A DNA stretch of 64,000 bases from Minisyncoccota bacterium (GCA_023140255.1 JAGLLX010000003.1:7485-71484); one strand, 5' to 3'. Positions 2,877 to 54,631 are shown, numbered from the stretch's first letter. Made by a program: numbers and translations. Notes: generated by a model not told the origin, from the sequence alone.

Positions 2877-3542
2877 ATGCCTATTTATAAAAAAGTAAAT
2901 GTAGATTTTTTTAAAAAATGGTCTCCCAAAATGGCTTACGTTTTAGGGTTTTTTATGGCTGATGGTTCTATTGATATAAATCCACGAGGTTCGCATTATC
3001 TTAGTATTCAAATTTGCGATAAGGAACTTTTAGAAAGTATAAAGAAGACTTTAGAGTCTAATCATAAAATATCAGTAAGGAAAGGGTTTGGGAATGAAAG
3101 CGATAAATATAGACTTCAAATAGGTAGAAAAGAAATGTTTGAAGATTTACAAAAGTTGGGAGTAAATCAACAAAAATCACATACAATGGAAATGCCAAAA
3201 GTTCCTAAAAAATATTTCGGAGATTTTGTTAGGGGTTATTTTGATGGAGATGGAAATGTTTGGGTGGGGTTTGTTCATAAGGAAAGGAAAACACCAACTT
3301 TAGTTATTCATACGGTGTTTACTTCATGTTCTAGAATGTTTTTAAATTCATTACATAATGAAATACAGGAACAAGGAATTTTAGGAGGGGGAATTATTTG
3401 CAAAAAGAATGCTTTTTGTTTAAAGTATAGTATTAACGACTCTTTAAAATTATATAAGTTAATGTATAATAGTCTTGATAACGACTTATTCTTAGAAAGA
3501 AAAAGAATTGTTTTTAAAGAGTTCGCAAAATTGCGGGTGTAG
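2877..3542 (+). CDS. Double-motif LAGLIDADG homing endonuclease (free-standing)
   Basis: Two LAGLIDADG motifs are present: YVLGFFMADGSI and FVRGYFDGDGNV. The 221-aa length is typical of a monomeric double-motif enzyme. The stop codon TAG (3540-3542) lies inside the 5' acceptor stem of the downstream tRNA-Asp. Confidence 0.8.
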   Translation: MPIYKKVNVDFFKKWSPKMAYVLGFFMADGSIDINPRGSHYLSIQICDKELLESIKKTLESNHKISVRKGFGNESDKYRLQIGRKEMFEDLQKLGVNQQKSHTMEMPKVPKKYFGDFVRGYFDGDGNVWVGFVHKERKTPTLVIHTVFTSCSRMFLNSLHNEIQEQGILGGGIICKKNAFCLKYSINDSLKLYKLMYNSLDNDLFLERKRIVFKEFAKLRV

Positions 3543-3605
3543 CTCAGCTGGTAGAGCATTCGCTTGTCACGCGAAAGGTCGCCGGTTCAAGTCCGGTCAC
3601 TCGCG
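3533..3605 (+). tRNA. tRNA-Asp (anticodon GUC)
   Basis: Acceptor gcgggtg/cactcgc, D-arm gctc-agctggtag-agc, anticodon stem ttcgc/gcgaa with loop ttGTCac, T-loop ttcaagt. Confidence 0.8.
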
Positions 3606-3612
3606 CAAAATA

Positions 3613-5050: not shown

Positions 5051-5087
5051 GAATAATTTATTTTTAGTGTTATAATACAAATTATAT

Positions 5088-5207
5088 GAATCCCGTTAGA
5101 GATTTGGCGGGAAAAAGATTAATAATTTAATTTAAAGATAGTTATTAAAAGTAAGGGACTTGTCCCGTTAGAAAGACTTTTAATAAATTATCTCTAACGG
5201 GATGAAT
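5088..5207. repeat. Dispersed structured element, copy 1 (cccgttagagat ... atctctaacggg-ATG)
   Basis: 12-nt terminal inverted repeats enclose ~95 nt. It contains a second internal copy of cccgttaga. The 3' arm abuts the ATG of ORF 5202. It is ~95% identical to copy 2 at 11335-11452. The hexamer ATGAAT is present at both ends. Confidence 0.7.
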
Positions 5208-5420
5208 AAGAAAAAAATTTTAATTGCAGCTATATTAGTTATAATAATTCCTTTAGTAGGTATCCCTGTTTTATGGAAAACATGGCTTTTGGTTGCTGCA
5301 GGTTTGTATATTATTTGGCAGACTTTTGCATCTAAAGATAAAGATAAGGATATTGAAGAGGAAAAAGAAAAAAATTTTGATAAAGTTTATATAGAAAATG
5401 AAAAGAATATTGAAGAATAA
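5202..5420 (+). CDS. Small membrane protein
   Basis: 72 aa. Two hydrophobic helices followed by a Lys/Glu-rich tail. The start codon lies inside the 3' arm of the repeat element. Confidence 0.4.
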   Translation: MNKKKILIAAILVIIIPLVGIPVLWKTWLLVAAGLYIIWQTFASKDKDKDIEEEKEKNFDKVYIENEKNIEE

Positions 5421-8209: not shown

Positions 8210-9871
8210 ATGAAAGACCTTAATCCTATCACATATTTCGCTGAAGCAGATCGGCGTAATAAAAGAACTCCGTTTGGCATAAAGGCTAGTGATAGAACTC
8301 GTCATGTTTATGTTATTGGTAAGACTGGTATGGGAAAATCTACTATGCTGGAAAATATGGCCGTGCAAGATATTAAAGAAGGGAATGGAATTTGTTTTAT
8401 AGATCCTCACGGACAATCAGTTAAAAAGTTTTTAGATTATATTCCAGAAGAAAGAATTGAGGATGTAATTTATTTTGCTCCTTTTGATGTAGATAATCCT
8501 ATTTCTTTTAATGTTATGGAAGATGTTGGTTCTGATAAAAGACACTTAGTGGCCCAAGGACTTCTCTCAGCTTTTAAAAAGATTTGGGGAGAAGAAACTT
8601 TTTCAGATAGAATGGAACATATTACTAACAATACTTTATTGGCTCTTTTAGAATACCCAGGTTCAACTATGTTGGGTATGACTAAAATTTTTACAGACGC
8701 AAAATATCGTAAAAAAGTTGTAGATAATATTACCGATCCATCTGTAAAATCTTTTTGGACTGATGAATTTGCTGGTTGGGATGAAAGATATAGAAAAGAT
8801 GCTTATGCTGCTATTTTGAATAAGGTAGGACAATTTACTTCTAACCCTTTAATTAGAAATATTATTGGACAGAAAAAATCATCTTTTAGTTTTAGAGATA
8901 TTATAGATAACAAAAAGATTCTTTTGGTTAATTTATCCATTGGGCAAGTAGGGGAAGCTAATGCTGATTTGTTGGGTTCAATGCTAACTACTAAAATTTA
9001 TTTAGCAGCTATGAGTCGTGCTGATGTATCAACTGAGGAATTAGCTAAATTACCTAATTTTTATTTGTATATTGATGAGTTTCAGAACTTAGCTAATGAT
9101 TCTTTTGCTGATATTTTATCTCAAGCAAGAAAATATAAATTAAATTTAACTATTGCTCACCAATATGTTGAACAAATGCCTGATGTAGTGCGAGCTGCAG
9201 TATTTGGAAACGTTGGAACGATGATTGCTTTTAGAGTAGGAGCGACTGATGCTGAGCAATTAGAAAAAGAATTTTCTCCTGAATTTACAGCTGATGATTT
9301 GGTTAATTTAGGATTTGCTCAAATTTATTTAAGGTTAATGATTGATGGAATTGGTTCCACACCTTTTTCAGCCAAGACTTTGCCGCCAATTACTAAACCA
9401 GAATTTTCCTATGAAACAGAAGTGATAGAATCTTCTAGAAAATTGTTTACTCGTAAAAAACAAGAAGTTGAGACAAATATTGAAGAATGGCTTAACTCTA
9501 CAAAGGTTAAACCACAAGAACAGCCTAAGAAAACAACAGGATCTTTTAATAAAACAAAGGAACCTTTCAGGAAAACAACAGGATTATCTACTAATAATCA
9601 AATTAATAATAAGCATACTTGTACAATTCAACCGATAACTAACAGAACTAATACAACGAATGGAAACCATAAGCCTATTGAAAAAAATAATTCATTAAAA
9701 GAGGCTTTGTCAGAAGCTTTGAAGGATTTAGAAAAAGACAATAAGAACGAATCCAATTTAGATAGCAATAACAGAAATACTTCTCTTGTGGAACAAAAAC
9801 AAAGTAAAGAGATTGCAAAAACTGATTTGGAAAAAATGTTATATGTTAAGCATCCTAAAGGAAATAACTAA
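8210..9871 (+). CDS. VirD4/TraD-like type IV coupling-protein-family P-loop ATPase (no TM segments), low-complexity C-terminal tail
   Basis: Walker A VIGKTGMGKST and Walker B LYIDEFQNLA. The N-terminus FAEADRRNKRTPFGIK...RHVYVIGKTGMGKS resembles T4SS DNA-transfer ATPases. The C-terminal ~150 aa are N/K/T-rich. Confidence 0.5.
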   Translation: MKDLNPITYFAEADRRNKRTPFGIKASDRTRHVYVIGKTGMGKSTMLENMAVQDIKEGNGICFIDPHGQSVKKFLDYIPEERIEDVIYFAPFDVDNPISFNVMEDVGSDKRHLVAQGLLSAFKKIWGEETFSDRMEHITNNTLLALLEYPGSTMLGMTKIFTDAKYRKKVVDNITDPSVKSFWTDEFAGWDERYRKDAYAAILNKVGQFTSNPLIRNIIGQKKSSFSFRDIIDNKKILLVNLSIGQVGEANADLLGSMLTTKIYLAAMSRADVSTEELAKLPNFYLYIDEFQNLANDSFADILSQARKYKLNLTIAHQYVEQMPDVVRAAVFGNVGTMIAFRVGATDAEQLEKEFSPEFTADDLVNLGFAQIYLRLMIDGIGSTPFSAKTLPPITKPEFSYETEVIESSRKLFTRKKQEVETNIEEWLNSTKVKPQEQPKKTTGSFNKTKEPFRKTTGLSTNNQINNKHTCTIQPITNRTNTTNGNHKPIEKNNSLKEALSEALKDLEKDNKNESNLDSNNRNTSLVEQKQSKEIAKTDLEKMLYVKHPKGNN

Positions 9872-11288
9872 TTATATAATTAAGAAAAAACAACTATCAA
9901 TAATAGTTGTTTTTTGTATCTTAGTTTTTAACCCAGCTATTCTTTTTGCCCAAATTGAAATAACTGAAATAATGTATGATTTAGAAATTGGTGGTGACAC
10001 AGGAAGGGAATGGATAGAGATTTACAATTCAGGAACAGGAGATATTGATATTAGTGAATTAAAATTATATGAAGCTGAAACTAATCATAAAATAAAACCA
10101 ATTATAGAAGACGGAAATACTATTTTAGCAGGAGGTGATTATGCAATTTTAGTAGATAATTATGAAAAATTTAAAGAAGATTGGCCGAATTTTTCAGGTT
10201 TAGTTCTAGATACAGCTTTTTCTTTAAAAAATACAGGTGAATTATTAATCTTAAGAAATTCTGAATTAGTAGATATTGATTCAGTTAATTATTTATCTGA
10301 TTGGGGAGCAAATGGAGATGGAAAATCTTTGCAAAAAATAAATGGAGATTGGCTGGGTGCTTCTCCTAGTCTAGGAAAAAGTAATTCTTCAGATTTCTCT
10401 GAAGAAGAGGAAGAAGATTCAGGAAATGAAACAATAGAGCCTTCTTCTCAAAGTTCAGGTTTTGACTTCATTGAAATAAATATAAAAGCAAAAATTGATT
10501 CACTTGAATATTTACCTGTAGCAGGAGCAGATGTTGTTTTTAAAGGAAAAGCTTTAGGTTTAGAGAATGAACTTTTAGAAAACGCTAGTTATCAATGGGC
10601 ATTTGGAGATGGAACTAAAGGAAAGGGTCAGAGCATTTTACATAATTTTACTTATCCAGGGGAATATTTGGTTGTTATGGAAGTTATTTCTGGAGAATAT
10701 GCTACTTCTGATAGATTAAAAATAAAAGTTATTCCATCTGAAATGATTATTTCATCTATAAACTTAGATTTAAATAATAATTTTATTGAAATATATAATC
10801 CTTCAAATTATGAAGTTAATCTTTCTTGGTGGAGATTAAGAACTGATAACACTTTTTTTACTTTTCCTAAAAATACTATTTTATTACCGAATTCTCATTT
10901 AAAATTATCTTTTAATGTTACTCAATTATTAGTAAAAGAAAATTCAATAGTGCAATTGCTTTATCCAAACGGAATGTTAACCTTTAATTATTCATTTAAA
11001 GAAGATTCTGGACTAGTTACTTATGTTGAAAGTCCAAAACTTTCGGTGGAACAGAAAATAACACCAATTGTTCAAAAATCAGTGATTTATTCAGTAGAAA
11101 AACCAGTAGAAGATGGTATTTCTGAGCAGGTGGCTACAATAAAAGATTCTCTAGGTGGCGAAGATACTGAAAAAAGTAAATTTCCTTTGAATAAATGGAA
11201 TTTGATGCTAGGTGGAATCACTTTTATTGCTGTTGTTGGAGTGGCTTATGCGACAAAATTAGATTCAGACAATGAAAATCTTTTTTGA
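9843..11288 (+). CDS. Cell-surface protein with two lamin-tail domains (LTD), a PKD domain and a C-terminal TM anchor
   Basis: LTD-like EITEIMYD...EWIEIYNSG and FIEIYNPSNYEVNLSWWRL. PKD-like WAFGDGTKGKGQSILHNFTYPGEYLVVMEV. Hydrophobic C-terminus. The start was chosen at the internal Met (9843); the tabulated ORF starts at 9786 and overlaps the upstream gene. Confidence 0.55.
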   Translation: MLSILKEITNYIIKKKQLSIIVVFCILVFNPAILFAQIEITEIMYDLEIGGDTGREWIEIYNSGTGDIDISELKLYEAETNHKIKPIIEDGNTILAGGDYAILVDNYEKFKEDWPNFSGLVLDTAFSLKNTGELLILRNSELVDIDSVNYLSDWGANGDGKSLQKINGDWLGASPSLGKSNSSDFSEEEEEDSGNETIEPSSQSSGFDFIEINIKAKIDSLEYLPVAGADVVFKGKALGLENELLENASYQWAFGDGTKGKGQSILHNFTYPGEYLVVMEVISGEYATSDRLKIKVIPSEMIISSINLDLNNNFIEIYNPSNYEVNLSWWRLRTDNTFFTFPKNTILLPNSHLKLSFNVTQLLVKENSIVQLLYPNGMLTFNYSFKEDSGLVTYVESPKLSVEQKITPIVQKSVIYSVEKPVEDGISEQVATIKDSLGGEDTEKSKFPLNKWNLMLGGITFIAVVGVAYATKLDSDNENLF

Positions 11289-11334
11289 TTTTAAAAATAG
11301 GGGGTTTTTGGTACAATAAATAAGGTATATATCA

Positions 11335-11452
11335 GTCCCGTTAGAGATTTGGCGGGAAAAAGATTAGTAATTTAATTTGAAGATAGTTATTAAAAGTAAG
11401 GGACTTGTCCCGTTAGAGATACTTTTAATAAAGTATCTCTAACGGGATGAGT
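11335..11452. repeat. Dispersed structured element, copy 2
   Basis: Near-identical to copy 1. The internal hairpin gttagagatac/gtatctctaac is perfect. The 3' arm runs into the ATG of the GT gene at 11447. Confidence 0.7.
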
Positions 11453-12631
11453 AATAAAAGAATTTTAATATTTTCTACAGCTTATTATCCTTTTGTAGGT
11501 GGAGCTGAGGTGGCCATAAAAGAGATTACTGATCGTACTAGCGGGATAGATTTTCATATGCTTACTGCTAGAATGGATAGGACTCTATCTAAAAAAGAAA
11601 AGATAGGAAATATTTTAGTACATAGAATAGGGTTTGGGATTCCTAAGATTGATAAATTATGTCTTGCTTTTTTTGGATTTTTTTATGCTCAAAGATTACA
11701 AAAACAAAATAAATATTCAGTTGTTTGGGCTATGATGGCAAGTTATGGAGGTTTCGCTGCTTCAAAATTTAAATTTTTAAATCCAGAGATAAATTTTCTA
11801 CTAACTTTGCAGGAAGGAGATAGCCTTGATTATATTGCTAAAAGAACTTACTTTGTTAAAAAACAATTTAAAGATATTTTTATACGAGCTGATAAAATAC
11901 AATGTATTAGTACTTATCTAGCTGAATGGGCAAAAATGATGGGAGCAAGATGTTCTATTGAGGTGATTCCAAACGGAGTAGATATTAAAAACTTTTCACA
12001 AGAATATTCTGAAAAAGAATTATCTGATTTAAAATTAAAATTTAATAAAACACTAGAAGATAAGTTTTTGATTCATACGGGACGTTTAACTTATAAAAAT
12101 GCTGTAGATGATTTAATTCAAGCTCTTATTTATTTACCAGAGAGTATTAAAATATTATTGGTTGGAAAGGGAGAAGACGAAGAAAAATTGAGAGCTATTG
12201 TTCAAGAAAAAGGCTTGAAAAATAGAGTTTATTTTTTAGGATTTATTGATCATAAAGAAATTCCACAATATTTAAGAATTTCTGATATTTTTGTAAGGGC
12301 TTCATTGTCAGAAGGATTAGGAAATTCATTTTTAGAAGCGATGTTAACTTCTTTACCTGTAATTGCTACTCAAGAAGGTGGAATCGTAGATTTTTTGTTT
12401 GATGAAAAAAGAAATCCTAATAAAGAAGTAACAGGTTGGGCTGTTGATTCTAGAAGCCCTGAGCAAATAGCGGAAGCAGTTAAATGTATTTTAAGTAATT
12501 CTGAGAAAGCTAAAAAAGTTACTGATACTGCTAAAAAAATGGTTTTAGAAAAATATAATTGGGATATTTTAGCAAAAGAAATGCAAGAAAAAGTTTTTAA
12601 TAAATTATTTGGAAGCCGGGCTTCCAAATGA
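11447..12631 (+). CDS. Glycosyltransferase family 1 (GT4); the last 7 codons and the stop are supplied by a REP palindrome
   Basis: GT4 EX7E region SEGLGNSFLEAM. The C-terminus ...FGSRASK* is encoded by tttggaagccgggcttccaaaTGA. Confidence 0.75.
   Translation: MSNKRILIFSTAYYPFVGGAEVAIKEITDRTSGIDFHMLTARMDRTLSKKEKIGNILVHRIGFGIPKIDKLCLAFFGFFYAQRLQKQNKYSVVWAMMASYGGFAASKFKFLNPEINFLLTLQEGDSLDYIAKRTYFVKKQFKDIFIRADKIQCISTYLAEWAKMMGARCSIEVIPNGVDIKNFSQEYSEKELSDLKLKFNKTLEDKFLIHTGRLTYKNAVDDLIQALIYLPESIKILLVGKGEDEEKLRAIVQEKGLKNRVYFLGFIDHKEIPQYLRISDIFVRASLSEGLGNSFLEAMLTSLPVIATQEGGIVDFLFDEKRNPNKEVTGWAVDSRSPEQIAEAVKCILSNSEKAKKVTDTAKKMVLEKYNWDILAKEMQEKVFNKLFGSRASK
12608..12628. repeat. REP-like palindrome, copy 1
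   Basis: tttggaagccgggcttccaaa: a 10-bp stem with a 1-nt loop, GC-rich in an AT-rich context. Confidence 0.8.
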
Positions 12632-12643
12632 TATAATTATGTT

Positions 12644-13336
12644 ATGCCAAGAAGAAAAATTACATTTGAAAATGGGGAATTTTATCACATATATAATCGT
12701 GGAGTAGATAAGCGTAATATTGTAAAAAATAAAAATGATATTATGCGAATGTTAGAAAGTCTTGAAGTTTTTAATACAACAGAACTGATTGGAAGTATTT
12801 ATGAAGATACTCGTAGAAAAAGAAATAACCAATTTGGAAGCCGGGCTTCCAAATTGGTTGATATTCTAGCATTTAATATCTTAGATAATCATTATCATCT
12901 TGTTTTAAAACAATTAAGTGATGGAGGTATTAGTAAGTTTATGCATTCTTTTGGAACAGGTTATGCAAAACACTTTAATGAAAAATATGATAGAGTAGGG
13001 TCTTTATTTCAAGGAGTTTTTAAAGCTGAGCACATAAACTCTGATAAATATTTAAGTTATGTAGTTTCTTATGTAAATATTAATCACTTTATTCATAGTT
13101 ATGAATCATTTGGAAGTTCTATCTCTGAATGGGGAATGAGAAGCAGTTTAGAACAATATGTGGATCATAGAAGAGAACATAAGAATAAGTATTTTGAATG
13201 TGATATTGATATAATTAAAAGTAGATTTAAAAATGGAAAGGAATATTTAAAAGAAGCTATTGAAATTTCTAAAAATATTAAGGAGAGAAGAAAAGATAAA
13301 AATTTGGAAGCCGGGCTTCCAAATGATAGTTTTTAA
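12644..13336 (+). CDS. REP-associated tyrosine transposase (RAYT/IS200-like HuH Y1 transposase)
   Basis: N-terminal FYHIYNRGVDKRNIV, the HuH motif NHYHLVL, and downstream Tyr residues (KYLSYVVSY). It is flanked by, and internally contains, REP palindromes. Confidence 0.65.
   Translation: MPRRKITFENGEFYHIYNRGVDKRNIVKNKNDIMRMLESLEVFNTTELIGSIYEDTRRKRNNQFGSRASKLVDILAFNILDNHYHLVLKQLSDGGISKFMHSFGTGYAKHFNEKYDRVGSLFQGVFKAEHINSDKYLSYVVSYVNINHFIHSYESFGSSISEWGMRSSLEQYVDHRREHKNKYFECDIDIIKSRFKNGKEYLKEAIEISKNIKERRKDKNLEAGLPNDSF
12834..12854. repeat. REP-like palindrome, copy 2 (inside the RAYT CDS, in frame: QFGSRASKL)
   Basis: Identical 21-mer. Confidence 0.8.
13304..13324. repeat. REP-like palindrome, copy 3 (end of the RAYT CDS: LEAGLPN)
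   Basis: Identical 21-mer, read in the other frame. Confidence 0.8.
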
Positions 13337-13352
13337 TAAATTAATATAAAAA

Positions 13353-14462
13353 ATGAAAATTTTAATCACAACAGGAATATATCCTCCAGATATTGGAGGG
13401 CCAGCAACTTATTCAAAATTACTTTTTGATAAATTGCCAGAGAGAGGGGTAGAAGTAAAAATTTTATCTTTTGGTGAAGTTCGTAATTTACCTAAAATAA
13501 TTAGACATTTTGTTTATTTTTATAAGATTTTAATAAGAGGGCGGAAGGTAGATGTGATTTATGCTCAAGATCCAGTGAGTGTAGGTTTTCCAACTATGTT
13601 AGCTAATAAGATTTTAAAGAAAAGATTTTTGATTCGGATTGCGGGCGATTATGCTTGGGAACAAGGGGTGCAAAGATTTGAGGTAAAAGATAAGTTAGAT
13701 GATTTTTCTGCTCAAAAAGATAAATATGGTTTTTTTGTTTCTTTATTTAAGAAAATTCAGACTAAGGTGGCTCAATCTGCAGAAAGAATAATTGTACCTA
13801 GTAGATATTTTAAAGGGGTGATAGAAAATTGGGGGATAGATTCAGAAAAAATTAAGGTAATTTATAATGGGATAGATATTTTTAAAAACGTGGAAGCCCG
13901 GCTTCCACGGTTTCCACGGGGTTTAAATAATGGGGGGAAGGTTTTGTTATCAGTTGGAAGACTGGTTCCTTGGAAGGGTTTTGATGTTTTAATTGAATGT
14001 ATGCCTGAAATTTTGAAAAATTATCCTGATTTACAATTGAAAATTGTAGGTGAAGGTCCTCAAAGACAAGAATTAGAAGGCTTGATTAAGAATTTAGATT
14101 TAGAAGAAAATGTTATTTTGACGGGTCAAATTGTTAGAGAAGAATTATTATTATTAAAAAAAGAAGCTGATATCTTTTTATTTAATACTAATTGGGAATC
14201 TTTTTCTTTTGATACTGTGGAATGTATGAATTTGAGATTACCAGTTATTACTACTAAAGTGGGGTCATTACCAGAACTAATTCAGGATGATATAGACGGA
14301 ATTTTAATAGAACCAAATAATAAAAAACAAATATTAAGTGCTATTGTTAAAATTTTTGTAAATGATCAATTTAGAGAGAAAATTATTGAAAACGCCTATA
14401 ATAAATCTAAACAATTTTCTATTGAAAATACTCTAAATAACTTAGAAAAAGTTCTAAAATAA
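13353..14462 (+). CDS. Glycosyltransferase family 1 (GT4)
   Basis: Two Rossmann halves and an E..E motif near the C-terminus. A REP variant is inserted at the inter-domain linker. Confidence 0.7.
   Translation: MKILITTGIYPPDIGGPATYSKLLFDKLPERGVEVKILSFGEVRNLPKIIRHFVYFYKILIRGRKVDVIYAQDPVSVGFPTMLANKILKKRFLIRIAGDYAWEQGVQRFEVKDKLDDFSAQKDKYGFFVSLFKKIQTKVAQSAERIIVPSRYFKGVIENWGIDSEKIKVIYNGIDIFKNVEARLPRFPRGLNNGGKVLLSVGRLVPWKGFDVLIECMPEILKNYPDLQLKIVGEGPQRQELEGLIKNLDLEENVILTGQIVREELLLLKKEADIFLFNTNWESFSFDTVECMNLRLPVITTKVGSLPELIQDDIDGILIEPNNKKQILSAIVKIFVNDQFREKIIENAYNKSKQFSIENTLNNLEKVLK
13889..13909. repeat. REP-like palindrome, variant copy 4 (inside the GT CDS: EARLPRFPRG)
   Basis: cgtggaagcccggcttccacg followed by a partial direct repeat, tttccacgg. 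Confidence 0.7.
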
Positions 14463-48683: not shown

Positions 48684-48763
48684 AAACTAAAAATAAAAGG
48701 GCGACCGCTTTGCGGTCGCCCTTTTTCTTGTGTTCTAATTTAATTATGTTTTAATGTAAACAA

Positions 48764-48852
48764 TGAATCCCGTTAGAGATTTGGCGGGGTCAAAAATTAC
48801 TAATTAAATTAAGATTATTTACTTTTTGTAAATTATCTCTAACGGGATGAAT
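48764..48852. repeat. Dispersed structured element, copy 3 (short form)
   Basis: atgaat-cccgttagagatttggcgggg ... atctctaacggg-ATGAAT. It lacks the internal repeat. The 3' arm abuts the trmD ATG. Confidence 0.65.
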
Positions 48853-49476
48853 TTTCACATAATTACAATTTTCCCAGAATCTTTTGATTCATATTTAAGT
48901 GAGTCTATTTTAGCGCGAGCAATTAAAGATAAGAAAATTAAAATAAAGTTTTATAATCCTCGGGATTATGTAAAAGAAGGAAGGGTAGATTTTAAACCTT
49001 ATGGAGGTGGTCCAGGAATGGTAATGAAAGCAGAACCCGTAATTAAAGCTATCGCTAAAGCAATAGGGAAAAAGAAAGATTTTGGAATTTTGTTTCTGTC
49101 ACCTAGTGGTAAAAAATTTGATAATAATTTAGCCAAACAATATTCAAAGAAATTTAAAGATATCATAATTATCAGTGGAAATTATGAAGGAATAGATTCT
49201 CGTGTAAAAAAAGTGTTTAAGATGCAGGAAATTTCTATTGGAGATTATGTCTTAACAGGTGGAGCTTTGCCGGCGATGGTTTTAATTGATGTCATTTCTC
49301 GTCAGGTAAAAGGAGTTTTGGGAAAGGAGGAATCGTTAGAAGAAAATAGAATTTCAAGTCCAGAAGTTTATACTCGTCCTGGAATAATTAAATATAGAAA
49401 GAAAGAATATAAAGTGCCAAAAATTTTGTTATCTGGTCATCACAAAAAAATTGATGAGTGGAGGGGGAGTCACTAG
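48847..49476 (+). CDS. trmD: tRNA (guanine37-N1)-methyltransferase (short)
   Basis: MNFHIITIFPESF...YGGGPGMVMKAEPV... fits the SPOUT TrmD family. Confidence 0.75.
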   Translation: MNFHIITIFPESFDSYLSESILARAIKDKKIKIKFYNPRDYVKEGRVDFKPYGGGPGMVMKAEPVIKAIAKAIGKKKDFGILFLSPSGKKFDNNLAKQYSKKFKDIIIISGNYEGIDSRVKKVFKMQEISIGDYVLTGGALPAMVLIDVISRQVKGVLGKEESLEENRISSPEVYTRPGIIKYRKKEYKVPKILLSGHHKKIDEWRGSH

Positions 49477-53396: not shown

Positions 53397-53451
53397 AAAT
53401 TAACCTTCATTAACTATTGAATGATTATATCAAAACTCTTTGATAAGTAAA

Positions 53452-53511
53452 CCCTGTTAGAAATCCATTTCGTCTTGATTTTACTAGTTATACCCACTAA
53501 TTTCTAACGGG
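53452..53511. repeat. Diverged relative of the dispersed structured element (ccctgttagaaat ... atttctaacgggg)
   Basis: The same TIR architecture with ~3 substitutions per arm. It lies upstream of ORF 53540. Confidence 0.45.
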
Positions 53512-53539
53512 GTAAATACATTATGCTAAAATATAACTA

Positions 53540-54631
53540 ATGCGAGATCTAAAGAATAAAATAAAAAGTCGTACTAATCACCACCTGGTAAAAACGAAAT
53601 CTTGGTTTAAGAAAAATGAAAAATATCTAATTATTGGGTTTTTTACATTTGGTTTAATTGTAGATAATTTAACCTTAACTAGAATTGATCAAGTTTTTGA
53701 TAATTTAGTAATTTTAAGTTATTTATTTTTGGCTGTAATTAGTATTATTTTAATTAATTATTTTAAAGCTAAAGAAAATCAAGGTAAATATTCATATTTT
53801 TCAAAATTTGAGAAATATCTTCCTTTAGCTACTCAATTTGCTTTTGGAGGACTTTTTAGTGCTTATATTATTTTTTATACAAAATCTGCGTCTTGGGCGA
53901 CTAGTTGGTTTTTTCTTCTAATTATTTTTGGGTTATTTATTGGAAATGAGAAATTTAGAAAAAAATATAAGGAAATTGACTTCCAAATAAATATTTTATT
54001 TTTAGCGTTGTTTTCTTTTATGATTTTTTTCGTACCTGTTATCCTAAAACAAATAGGTGTTTGGATTTTTATTTTAAGTGGAGTTTTAAGTCTTTTATTA
54101 ATCTACGGCTTAATTAAATTTATCTCTTCCTTTGTTCTTGAAATAAGTCAAAAACGAAAAAAGGAAATATTTACACATATTATGGGTGTTTTTCTTTTAT
54201 TTAACTTGATGTATTTTTTAAATATTATTCCTCCAGTCCCTTTATCAATGAAAGAAATTGGAGTTTATAGAAATATAGAGAAAAGTGCTAACGGGGATTA
54301 TTTGTTAGAAGAGGTGGAAGTTCCTTGGTATTCTTTTGGAAATTATTTTATAAAAATATCCCAAGGGCCTGTTTATATTTATGCTTCAGTTTTTGCACCT
54401 ACTGATTTGGAAACGGAAATAATTTATGAATGGTTTCGTTATGATGAACAAAAAAATAGATGGCTTTCTTATGATGAAGTAAAATATTCAATTAAAGGAG
54501 GAAGAGGAGATGGTTATAGAGGATATGTGTATTCCGCTAATTTGGAAATAGGAGAGTGGAGAGTGGATGTAAAAACAAAATCAAGTTTAGTTATAGGAAG
54601 AATTAAATTTGAAATAAAAGATACAATTTGA
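53540..54631 (+). CDS. Polytopic membrane protein, unknown function
   Basis: At least 8 hydrophobic segments and a soluble C-terminal ~130 aa. Confidence 0.4.
   Translation: MRDLKNKIKSRTNHHLVKTKSWFKKNEKYLIIGFFTFGLIVDNLTLTRIDQVFDNLVILSYLFLAVISIILINYFKAKENQGKYSYFSKFEKYLPLATQFAFGGLFSAYIIFYTKSASWATSWFFLLIIFGLFIGNEKFRKKYKEIDFQINILFLALFSFMIFFVPVILKQIGVWIFILSGVLSLLLIYGLIKFISSFVLEISQKRKKEIFTHIMGVFLLFNLMYFLNIIPPVPLSMKEIGVYRNIEKSANGDYLLEEVEVPWYSFGNYFIKISQGPVYIYASVFAPTDLETEIIYEWFRYDEQKNRWLSYDEVKYSIKGGRGDGYRGYVYSANLEIGEWRVDVKTKSSLVIGRIKFEIKDTI

Follow-up and report, generated by a model that had tools for sequence, protein, structure and literature searches.

The 64,000-nt stretch of Minisyncoccota bacterium DNA analyzed here (the window) carries four copies of a short repeat with inverted arms, numbered 1 to 4 by position. 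Copies 1–3 are near-identical and each abuts the ATG of a gene, those of a small membrane protein, a GT4 glycosyltransferase and trmD in turn, as an initial annotation of this DNA had described; copy 4 is diverged. We propose that the repeat is probably a mobile hairpin that inserts above all into first codons, where the start codon is rebuilt. The window has a G+C content of 29.7%, and its TrmD and RsmI match those of a Candidatus Pacebacteria (Patescibacteria) metagenome-assembled genome (MAG) at 100%. The features of the four loci are as follows:

5071..5076, + strand: extended −10 box TATAAT (TG ahead), the original promoter of the small membrane protein gene, 9 nt upstream of the retained ATG
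5086-5207: copy 1 with its flanks, long form, then the ATG of a 72-aa membrane protein at 5202
5086..5090, + strand: left flank ATGAA of copy 1, the original start codon with the left TGAA of the 4-nt duplication
5091..5202, + strand: copy 1 element, long form, 112 nt
5091-5103, + strand: left arm of copy 1
5104-5111, + strand: TTGGCGGG box of copy 1, able to pair locally with the left arm
5164-5175, + strand: degenerate internal arm of copy 1, 2 mismatches
5190-5202, + strand: right arm of copy 1, its final base being the A of the gene's ATG
5202..5420, + strand: small membrane protein gene, 72 aa, start codon made of the element's A and the duplicated TG
11331-11452: copy 2 with its flanks, long form, then the GT4 glycosyltransferase ATG at 11447
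11331..11335, + strand: left flank ATCAG of copy 2, a decayed ATGAG
11336..11447, + strand: copy 2 element, long form, 112 nt
11336-11348, + strand: left arm of copy 2
11409-11420, + strand: internal arm of copy 2, perfect
11435-11447, + strand: right arm of copy 2, ending on the A of the GT4 ATG
11447..12631, + strand: GT4 glycosyltransferase gene (Pfam Glycos_transf_1, E = 1e-34)
48763-48852: copy 3 with its flanks, short form, then the trmD ATG at 48847
48763..48767, + strand: left flank ATGAA of copy 3, the original trmD start
48768..48847, + strand: copy 3 element, short form, 80 nt
48768-48780, + strand: left arm of copy 3
48781-48788, + strand: TTGGCGGG box of copy 3
48835-48847, + strand: right arm of copy 3
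48847..49476, + strand: trmD (PF01746), start codon re-formed at the end of copy 3
53448..53516, + strand: copy 4 with its flanks (TAAA at 53448-53451, element at 53452-53512, TAAA at 53513-53516), of a different family, with the gene ATG 28 nt downstream at 53540

All four copies lie where they had been placed. With up to two mismatches, the 12-mer CCCGTTAGAGAT occurs 10 times in the window against 2.1 expected, a count reached in 0 of 100 shuffles, and the paired-arm pattern occurs three times against 0.00 expected. Copies 1 and 2 share 95.2% identity across the 83-nt interior, in line with the roughly 95% first reported. An nhmmer profile of 10 family copies recovered exactly copies 1–3, and copy 4 only weakly (E = 0.71), and found no further copy in the window. 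Each copy is predicted to fold into a long terminal helix (z-scores of −5.2 to −8.8 for copies 1–3 and −3.05 for copy 4), with copy 2 at −50 kcal/mol (z = −8.8); in copies 1 and 3 this helix is 14 bp long and takes in the A and U of the AUG. A second, internal arm is confined to the long form, where it is perfect in copy 2 and has two mismatches in copy 1, and folding reproduces the two mutually exclusive helices that had been predicted, in which the 3' arm pairs with either upstream arm. In copy 2, the internal and right arms form a hairpin that is exact over 18 bp and reaches 23 bp in the RNA fold.

Most genes in the window lack a Shine-Dalgarno sequence and have a TATAAT-like box 6–9 nt ahead of the ATG, which is a leaderless arrangement (examples are the gene starts at 1682, 8210, 12644, 14506, 33697, 47207 and 49726), and 23 of 59 genes begin with ATGAA. 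The genome thus appears, from its gene starts, to rely largely on leaderless mRNAs. Copies 1 and 3 sit directly downstream of a TATAAT-type promoter; that of copy 1 reads TTAAGA-18-TATAAT (10/12 match), and the left flank of copy 3 lies 11 nt past a −10-like box, TGTTTTAAT. In both copies the left-flank ATGAA opens an upstream open reading frame (uORF), which has 14 codons in copy 1 (MNPVRDLAGKRLII, then a stop) and reads MNPVRDLAGSKITN, then a stop, in copy 3. The left flank of copy 2 has decayed to ATCAG, so its upstream start codon is gone. Copy 4 occupies the 5' region of a gene for a DUF2914 protein (Pfam), and the small membrane protein behind copy 1 belongs to no Pfam family. The claim that the element always ends on an ATG therefore holds for copies 1–3 and fails for copy 4, which ends 28 nt upstream of one.

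The same arms recur outside the window. A metagenome scan for two arms separated by 41–101 nt returned at least 120 loci with these arms around unrelated interiors, and a viral collection gave three loci with paired arms; together with the window copies and loci from other genomes they form a set of 144 elements. Their general frame is Y-CCCGTTAGARAT ... ATYTCTAACGGG-R, a 13-bp inverted repeat with a 4-nt direct repeat, usually TGAA or TAAA, outside it, and in copy 4 the arms read C-CCTGTTAGAAAT ... ATTTCTAACGGG-G. The terminal repeat had been described as 12 nt long; the repeat is real, and its length is 13 bp, as the pair flanking the 12-nt arms is complementary in 142 of 144 elements (C-G in 88, T-A in 50). 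Just outside this 13th pair, 89 of 144 elements have a perfect 4-nt direct repeat in one register, compared with 0–2 in six other registers. Its sequence is TGAA in 41 cases, TAAA in 28, TGGA in 5 and TCAA in 4, with a few others, giving the general form N-T(G/A)AA-Y-arm ... arm-R-T(G/A)AA. The bounding ATGAAT and AGT motifs noted originally are present, yet they are no bounding hexamers: each combines this direct repeat (TGAA for copies 1 and 3, TCAG/TGAG for copy 2) with the start codon's original A. Between families the interiors are unrelated and the arms alone are common, with loops ranging from 3 nt to more than 100 nt.

A 20-mer, CCCGTTAGAGATTTGGCGGG, occurs at six loci in three other Patescibacteria species, two per species, each time between a promoter-proximal ATGAAT (ATAAAT in locus L005) and the ATG of a gene. 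Read from their N-terminal translations, these genes encode TrmH (in two species), a short-chain dehydrogenase, a TlyA-like methyltransferase, a SpoT-type HD protein and transketolase. A GC-rich 93-nt family is annotated as short hypothetical proteins in MAGs of Thermodesulfobacteriota, so the arms occur in at least two phyla. Translations of the element appear in databases as spurious gene calls, ‘hypothetical proteins’ of 40–74 aa, and the translated peptides match no Pfam or NCBIfam family. At the gathering threshold of Rfam, nothing but tRNAs was detected in the window and 10 related loci, and relaxing the search of two copies to E up to 10 added no more than sub-threshold look-alikes of hairpins, which bears out the remark that no known riboswitch class fits. 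Neither the peptide strings nor, in any relevant context, the sequences of the arms turned up in a paper, and keyword searches of the literature (MITEs, start codons, REPINs, and the Candidate Phyla Radiation (CPR), which includes Patescibacteria) returned nothing equivalent.

Comparison with the closest available relatives indicates that the element has moved. The trmD site carries no element in relatives L130–L133, whose TrmD proteins are 92, 88, 84 and 78% identical to that of the window; L132 reads tatgttttaatgtttatATGttaaca where the window has tatgttttaatgtaaacaATGAAT, the element and then ATGAATttt. The sites of copies 1 and 2 are likewise empty in L134–L136: the small membrane protein orthologues (69–75 aa) have no element upstream, the GT4 orthologues start at an unoccupied ATGAA, and L135 keeps the exact target of copy 1, ccatATGAATatgaaaaaa (...ccatATGAATatg). 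The reciprocal case also exists: in L130 (the 92% TrmD relative) a family copy abuts the ddl ATG, whereas ddl in the window has none. An orthologue of copy 4 is present in L130 (18579-18637). Nested insertions, each with its own TAAA repeats, occur in L074 and L073, and tandem arrays with a common 6-nt junction occur in L018, L023, L063, L067 and L125. The copy at trmH in L001 is 94% identical over 52 nt to copy 3 of the window, compared with 93% over 29 nt to the orthologous copy in L006, a pattern that suggests repeated insertion or gene conversion at this site. These comparisons identify copies 1–3 as lineage-specific insertions into genes that look leaderless in a Paceibacterota genome, and copy 4 as an older insertion of another family in a 5' region. 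The search for further copies and for empty sites in relatives that the initial annotation had called for thus yielded both, and we hold with high confidence that the element is mobile and non-autonomous.

The junctions explain how an element can occupy a first codon. They read ATGAA-T ... A-TGAA or ATGAA-C ... G-TGAA, and the rebuilt start codon consists of the last base of the element and the duplicated TG, such that T-ended elements are followed by ATG and C-ended elements by GTG. The suggestion that the element delivers a start codon or ribosome-binding site is accordingly supported for the re-formed start codon, whose first base comes from the element, and unsupported for the ribosome-binding site, in a genome that in any case mostly lacks Shine-Dalgarno sequences. 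Almost half of the elements (69/144) are directly followed by an ATG or GTG opening an open reading frame (ORF) of at least 60 aa, and the genes behind these 69 fall into 65 distinct protein clusters. Of the 50 T-A-ended elements, 45 stand at start codons, compared with 24 of the 88 C-G-ended ones. An in-register start codon is kept on the left in 49 of the 69, and ahead of this retained start lies either a −10 box (leaderless) or a Shine-Dalgarno sequence (for example in L081, L093 and L040). Because such Shine-Dalgarno cases exist, closeness to the transcription start cannot by itself account for start-codon placement. The interior carries stop codons in the frame of the downstream gene.

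Other sites are also occupied. Seven copies coincide precisely with a stop codon (TAA-A or TGA-A), and six of the 144 elements are read through by long ORFs; among the latter, the GC-rich family forms clean in-frame insertions of 33 aa (99 nt) in an ExeA-like ATPase and an FtsX-like permease. With only these six spanned by a long ORF, we rejected read-through coding as a general rule. Elements at L034 9178, L073 1276 and L096 872 have no detectable similarity in their interiors and stand on the start codons of homologous proteins in three different contigs, where genes of one kind appear to have been hit independently.

Several copies are associated with tRNA genes. In L106 (5349-5441), the terminal CGGGG of the element and the duplicated TGTA rebuild the 5' end of a tRNA-Pro gene, and in L014 (567-645) the terminal CGGGG gives the first five bases of a tRNA-Pro, with mismatched flanking repeats; the tRNA-Pro genes of these two loci are rebuilt in the same way as the start codons. 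The arms in L027 (628-735) enclose a reverse-oriented tRNA-Pro. In L136 (8254-8353), compensated variant arms, CCTGTTAGAGC and GCTCTAACAGG, form a 21-bp stem with flanks TTTAC/GTAAA and enclose a complete tRNA-Thr(CGU) beside the apparent halves of another tRNA, which suggests, as judged from this arrangement, a tRNA-carrying element inserted in a tRNA gene. Remnants of an arrangement of this type are found in L134 (9434-9470) and L135 (9540-9660). The anticodon loop of tRNA-Thr(CGU) holds GTAAAC, the favorite target of the element.

How much of the start-codon excess reflects the supply of sites can be estimated from the window, which contains 1364 RTRAA sites, 21 of them in register at start codons and 141 fully non-coding. 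The proportion of starts among tolerated sites (start plus non-coding) depends on the assumed target:

target RTRAA: 0.13
target ATG only: 0.28
target strictly ATGAA: 0.58

A preference for ATGAA-like targets together with purging of disruptive insertions accounts for much of the start bias, but not all of it.

Taken together, we regard it as probable that the repeats are copies of a non-autonomous mobile hairpin of the kind known as MITEs (transposable elements that are miniature and have inverted repeats) or repetitive extragenic palindromic (REP) sequences, with conserved 13-bp arms and a freely variable interior. They would form a new family or superfamily of such hairpins, characterized by insertion at T(G/A)AA, above all in first codons, with the start codon rebuilt. 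The copies have much of what defines a MITE, which the initial annotation had rightly raised as a reading: they are short and non-coding with perfect terminal inverted repeats (80–112 nt in the window), a target-site duplication of fixed length is present in 89 of 144 although about a quarter of start-codon copies are without it, and dispersed copies are accompanied by empty orthologous sites. A same-ended autonomous element encoding a transposase is missing from the approximately 0.9 Mb searched.

On insertion, 4 nt of the target are duplicated, mostly TGAA or TAAA, so that a target A|TGAA becomes ATGAA-Y[element]R-TGAA. The left junction retains the old initiation region (promoter or Shine-Dalgarno sequence, then ATGAA), and the right junction, R-TGAA, rebuilds ATG in T-A-ended and GTG in C-G-ended elements, leaving the reading frame intact. 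The excess at start codons would follow from the preference for targets like ATGAA, here the commonest gene start, and the loss of gene-disrupting insertions, with additional targeting or a benefit likely acting on top of site preference. In the transcript, the arms are expected to form a helix of 13–14 bp in which the rebuilt start codon has its first two bases buried, and expression must then depend on melting of this helix. We can envisage three routes. Ribosomes may initiate at the upstream AUG that was kept and translate MNPVR(D/N)... into the 5' arm; the 5' arm may pair locally with a decoy, the TTGGCGGG-type box; or the transcript may be processed endonucleolytically by an RNase III-type activity. 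The enzyme that moves the element would act in trans.

A number of observations weigh against this proposal. In about 17–20 of the 69 start-codon copies, the two flanks are unrelated to each other; the ddl copy of L130, which shows no duplication, is one of these. No autonomous parent was found: arm pairs 0.5–4 kb apart enclose no transposase in the roughly 880 kb of loci searched. All 27 of 27 related start-codon pairs have the same orientation relative to the gene, and 15 of 16 copies of the GC-rich family share their orientation relative to the asymmetric repeat. Symmetric DDE cut-and-paste transposition would not give such orientation, though selection on transcribed copies could; the bias would also fit a hairpin or core-homology mechanism, and the repeat and the element may both be oriented by selection. 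The placement of T-A-ended elements at starts (45/50) exceeds expectation even with a strict ATGAA target and intragenic hits purged (P = 7e-7). Stop-codon sites of suitable sequence match start sites in frequency (27 versus 21 of 59 genes) but carry ten times fewer copies. Finally, the coupling through a uORF is weakened by the retained upstream ATG being unprotected, its G having changed in 8 of 57 copies, no less often than the adjacent positions; no selection maintaining this ATG was seen.

The left flank of the ddl copy in L130 (11105-11209) is ACTTGT, with no duplicate of ATGTT. The flank ACTTGY recurs at L022, L030 and L032 and also ahead of the internal arm of the long form; its wobble pairing over the start codon is not enriched relative to permutation controls. 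The distant arm pairs were considered as a parent element and rejected, as they enclose ordinary genes, such as a sigma factor operon in L028.

The orientation data invite a different mechanism for the same mobility. Instead of a DDE transposase, a tyrosine recombinase or an HUH enzyme might move the element by a site-specific or single-strand hairpin reaction, a possibility that we consider real but unlikely. The joined ends (right arm, asymmetric core of 4–6 nt, left arm) would then constitute a lox/dif-like site, with the core, in place of a staggered cut, giving rise to the flanking repeat and setting the orientation. The junctions of the tandem arrays, ATTTCTAACGGG-GTAAAC-CCCGTTAGAAAT, have exactly this architecture, and orientation is indeed tied to the asymmetric repeat. 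The repeats are also family-specific (GTAAAC in the GC-rich family, ATGAAT in the Patescibacteria family), each outer core position is inherited together with the arm next to it (ATGAAC|...|GTGAA), and whole elements can measure as little as about 30 nt, less than a double-stranded circle would need. However, the targets show no arm-like sequence outside the core, within one family the repeats match perfectly but are not all alike (TGAA and TGCG), the outcome expected of a true duplication, the joined-end site has no match in the viral contigs, and the orientation bias could stem from selection.

The same mechanism would require an enzyme, and the window does encode a candidate of the right class. 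Directly past the GT4 gene lies a gene on the + strand at 12644-13336 (230 aa; unit 12593-13342) resembling the REP-associated tyrosine transposases (RAYTs), which are Y1 HUH proteins; it matches Pfam Y1_Tnp (IS200-like) at 29.4 bits, above the cut-off, and the NCBIfam REP-associated tyrosine transposase model at 27 bits, below the cut-off. Nevertheless, the palindrome at its borders, which also interrupts it in frame, is a different one, TTGGAAGCCGGGCTTCCAA (at 12609, 12834 and 13304, with a variant at 13890), for which the window has eight strand-hits where 0.01 would be expected. The whole unit has GTTTTTAATAAATTA on either side and is absent in L135 and L136, where an HD_4 gene follows GT4. 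With TTGGAAGCCGGGCTTCCAA rather than the CCCGTTAGAGAT arms at its borders, we rejected this protein as the mobilizer of the element and treat it as a lead only. No integrase or Y1 gene recurs near the elements, and among 148 ORFs within 2.5 kb of them no neighboring family other than housekeeping genes recurs.

A second alternative accepts the mobile origin and holds that the start-codon hairpin has since been domesticated as a module of translation or mRNA stability, which would explain its retention; the occluded AUG would be opened by uORF translation, a decoy helix or RNase III. We find this doubtful. It gains from the 14-bp helix that covers the first two bases of the start codon, from the 49 of 69 copies that keep an upstream in-register start codon, from the excess at start codons above site supply and from the trmH site being filled in two species (L001 and L006). 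The CGGG-type box, which is able to pair with the 5' arm, is found in the first 40 nt of 35 of the 69 copies and in the last 40 nt of 13, and by pairing predictions it could act as a decoy that releases the start codon. Yet the three start-codon copies of the window are absent from its nearest relatives, the downstream genes have no common function, the upstream ATG decays as fast as its neighbors, and the uORFs of start-codon copies follow no rule of stop position or frame. Pairing that would extend the helix across the start codon shows no enrichment (P = 0.21 and 0.84). Compensatory changes, for which the initial annotation had proposed a covariation analysis, are lacking: RNAalifold returned a consensus with the terminal helix only, of 14 pairs with 0 compensatory changes and no conserved interior helix. 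The four one-sided changes in the terminal helix all yield G-U, and a comparison of wobbles with mismatches in imperfect arms, aimed at RNA-level selection, had only four usable cases. An internal outward promoter that would restore a leaderless transcript was also considered and dropped, none being predicted in the element.

More ambitiously, the elements might be single-strand hairpin ‘mini-cassettes’ shared across phyla: a site-specific enzyme would act at a lox/dif-like junction, insertion would home directionally to first codons and rebuild the start, the gene would thereafter stand under a 5' helix and a common uORF (MNPVR...), and whole tRNAs could be carried as cargo. We offer this as a speculative reading with a small chance of being correct.

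Very improbable, and rejected here, is the idea of a conserved cis-regulatory RNA leader of a regulon (a riboswitch, attenuator or protein-binding leader), the other reading raised at the outset. The position in the 5' region of genes, the strong predicted folding, the mutually exclusive helices of the long form and an identity between species that seems, by eye, to exceed that of adjacent trmH synonymous sites would all suit it. Still, the orthologues of trmD, the small protein and GT4 in relatives have no element ahead of them, the 69 start-codon elements precede 65 protein clusters, and the interiors are unrelated between families. Neither a curated RNA family (at the Rfam gathering threshold or with E up to 10) nor covariation (0/14 predicted pairs compensatory, no conserved interior helix) supports a leader, so that the Rfam hit to a known leader that might have overturned the initial annotation did not appear. 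Target duplication, nested and tandem occurrence, and copies on stop codons and within ORFs are likewise at odds with a shared leader.

An inverton (invertible promoter) or an integron attC-type cassette site is scarcely credible, for although short inverted repeats surround an AT-rich segment upstream of surface-related genes (GT4, membrane protein) and the arm motifs GTTAGAR and YTCTAAC resemble the attC core motifs, no copy is inverted relative to its flanks (27/27 pairs and 15/16 GC-rich copies in one orientation), no gene-facing promoter is predicted in the element, the core polarity is the reverse of attC (GTTAGAR at the 5' end and YTCTAAC at the 3' end, where the attC consensus has RYYYAAC and GTTRRRY) with a perfect stem and no extrahelical bases, and no invertase or integron integrase recurs nearby.

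The proposed mobile hairpin can be set against several known systems. The bacterial MITEs (Correia/NEMIS of Neisseria, ERIC, RUP and Nezha) are likewise short (here about 30–125 nt) and non-coding, with perfect terminal inverted repeats, a short direct repeat, many dispersed copies and presence or absence among close relatives. In Correia elements the junction with the target creates a −10 box, whereas here the signal made at the junction is a start codon. Unlike these MITEs, the present elements have no known parent insertion sequence, their 4-nt repeat is asymmetric (T[GA]AA) with orientation tied to it, nearly half of the copies lie exactly on start codons, and the same 13-bp arms surround unrelated interiors in two phyla. 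A 2024 review of prokaryotic MITEs does not contain the term ‘start codon’ anywhere in its text (PMC10969869). It describes Rickettsia palindromic elements (RPEs), palindromic selfish elements that survive in coding genes as in-frame peptide insertions (PMC10969869). The GC-rich 93-nt family behaves analogously, being likewise in frame (99 nt, 33 aa). The host phyla differ, however, the translated peptides match no model in NCBIfam, which includes RPE models, or in Pfam, and the copies here lie mostly at gene starts, ends or 5' regions, with 6 of 144 read through.

REPs and REPINs, mobilized by RAYTs, are similar in that they form hairpins, are non-autonomous, presumably depend for movement on a single-copy enzyme acting in trans, and occur as singlets, doublets and clusters. 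REPs have a conserved 5' GTAG-type tetranucleotide and no target duplication, and lie mostly downstream of genes; the elements described here have a 4-nt duplication, arms beginning YCCC and no GTAG-type tetranucleotide, and the RAYT-like gene of the window is flanked by TTGGAAGCCGGGCTTCCAA, whereas a cognate RAYT gene would be flanked by the arms of the element. The ends of the piggyBac/IS1380 superfamily, a 13-bp terminal inverted repeat beginning CCC (CCCTAGAAAGATA) with a 4-nt TTAA duplication, are alike in the length and first bases of the repeat and in the T..AA duplication. This may be a coincidence: the target here is non-palindromic, insertion is seemingly directional, and no such transposase was found in the loci searched. 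Sites of the lox/FRT/dif and attC kinds also have two inverted arms of 12–13 bp around an asymmetric spacer of 4–6 nt, as where the ends of two elements abut, and the variable loop recalls the variable region of attC; in contrast to all of these, the targets have no arms, the polarity is opposite to attC and no recombinase is linked.

Insertion into a first codon is normally destructive, but here the terminal base of the element rebuilds the start codon, such that the element can persist at the 5' end of essential genes (trmD, ddl and trmH) in the minimal genomes of Patescibacteria. The insertions are natural experiments on translation start behind a stable 5' helix in leaderless, Shine-Dalgarno-poor bacteria. 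For annotation, gene callers could choose the wrong one of the two ATGs, and knowledge of the family would fix spurious calls. As the insertions differ among close relatives, they could also serve as strain-level markers. The same arms in two phyla, directional insertion and the lack of a linked transposase point to an uncharacterized mobilizing enzyme. Were the mini-cassette reading true, it would mean a new mechanism of transposition or recombination and a new rewiring of translation initiation in leaderless bacteria.

Other features stand out in the window and its relatives. A LAGLIDADG homing-endonuclease ORF (2877-3542, + strand; Pfam LAGLIDADG_3 and LAGLIDADG_1) is situated inside a tRNA cluster, between tRNA-Met (2644-2718) and tRNA-Asp (3533-3606), overlapping the start of the latter; relative L134 has such an ORF at this position, L135 and L136 have none, and Rfam reported no group I intron. 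A GC-rich palindrome, CCTGCCTGCCGGCAGGCAGG, occurs in AT-rich intergenic DNA of L130 (~9920-9945), L132 (~9765-9790) and L136 (~10705-10760), with no hits in the window at up to two mismatches, and could be a further mobile palindrome of small size. Between genes, a short repeat, ATAAAGTCNAAAGTC (‘ataaagtcaaaagtctataaagtc’), is present eight times in the window at up to two mismatches, against 1.8 expected (15666, 16423, 29872, 30315, 53556, 54843, 54915 and 54922), often directly past genes, and recurs in intergenic regions of L130, L131, L134 and L136.

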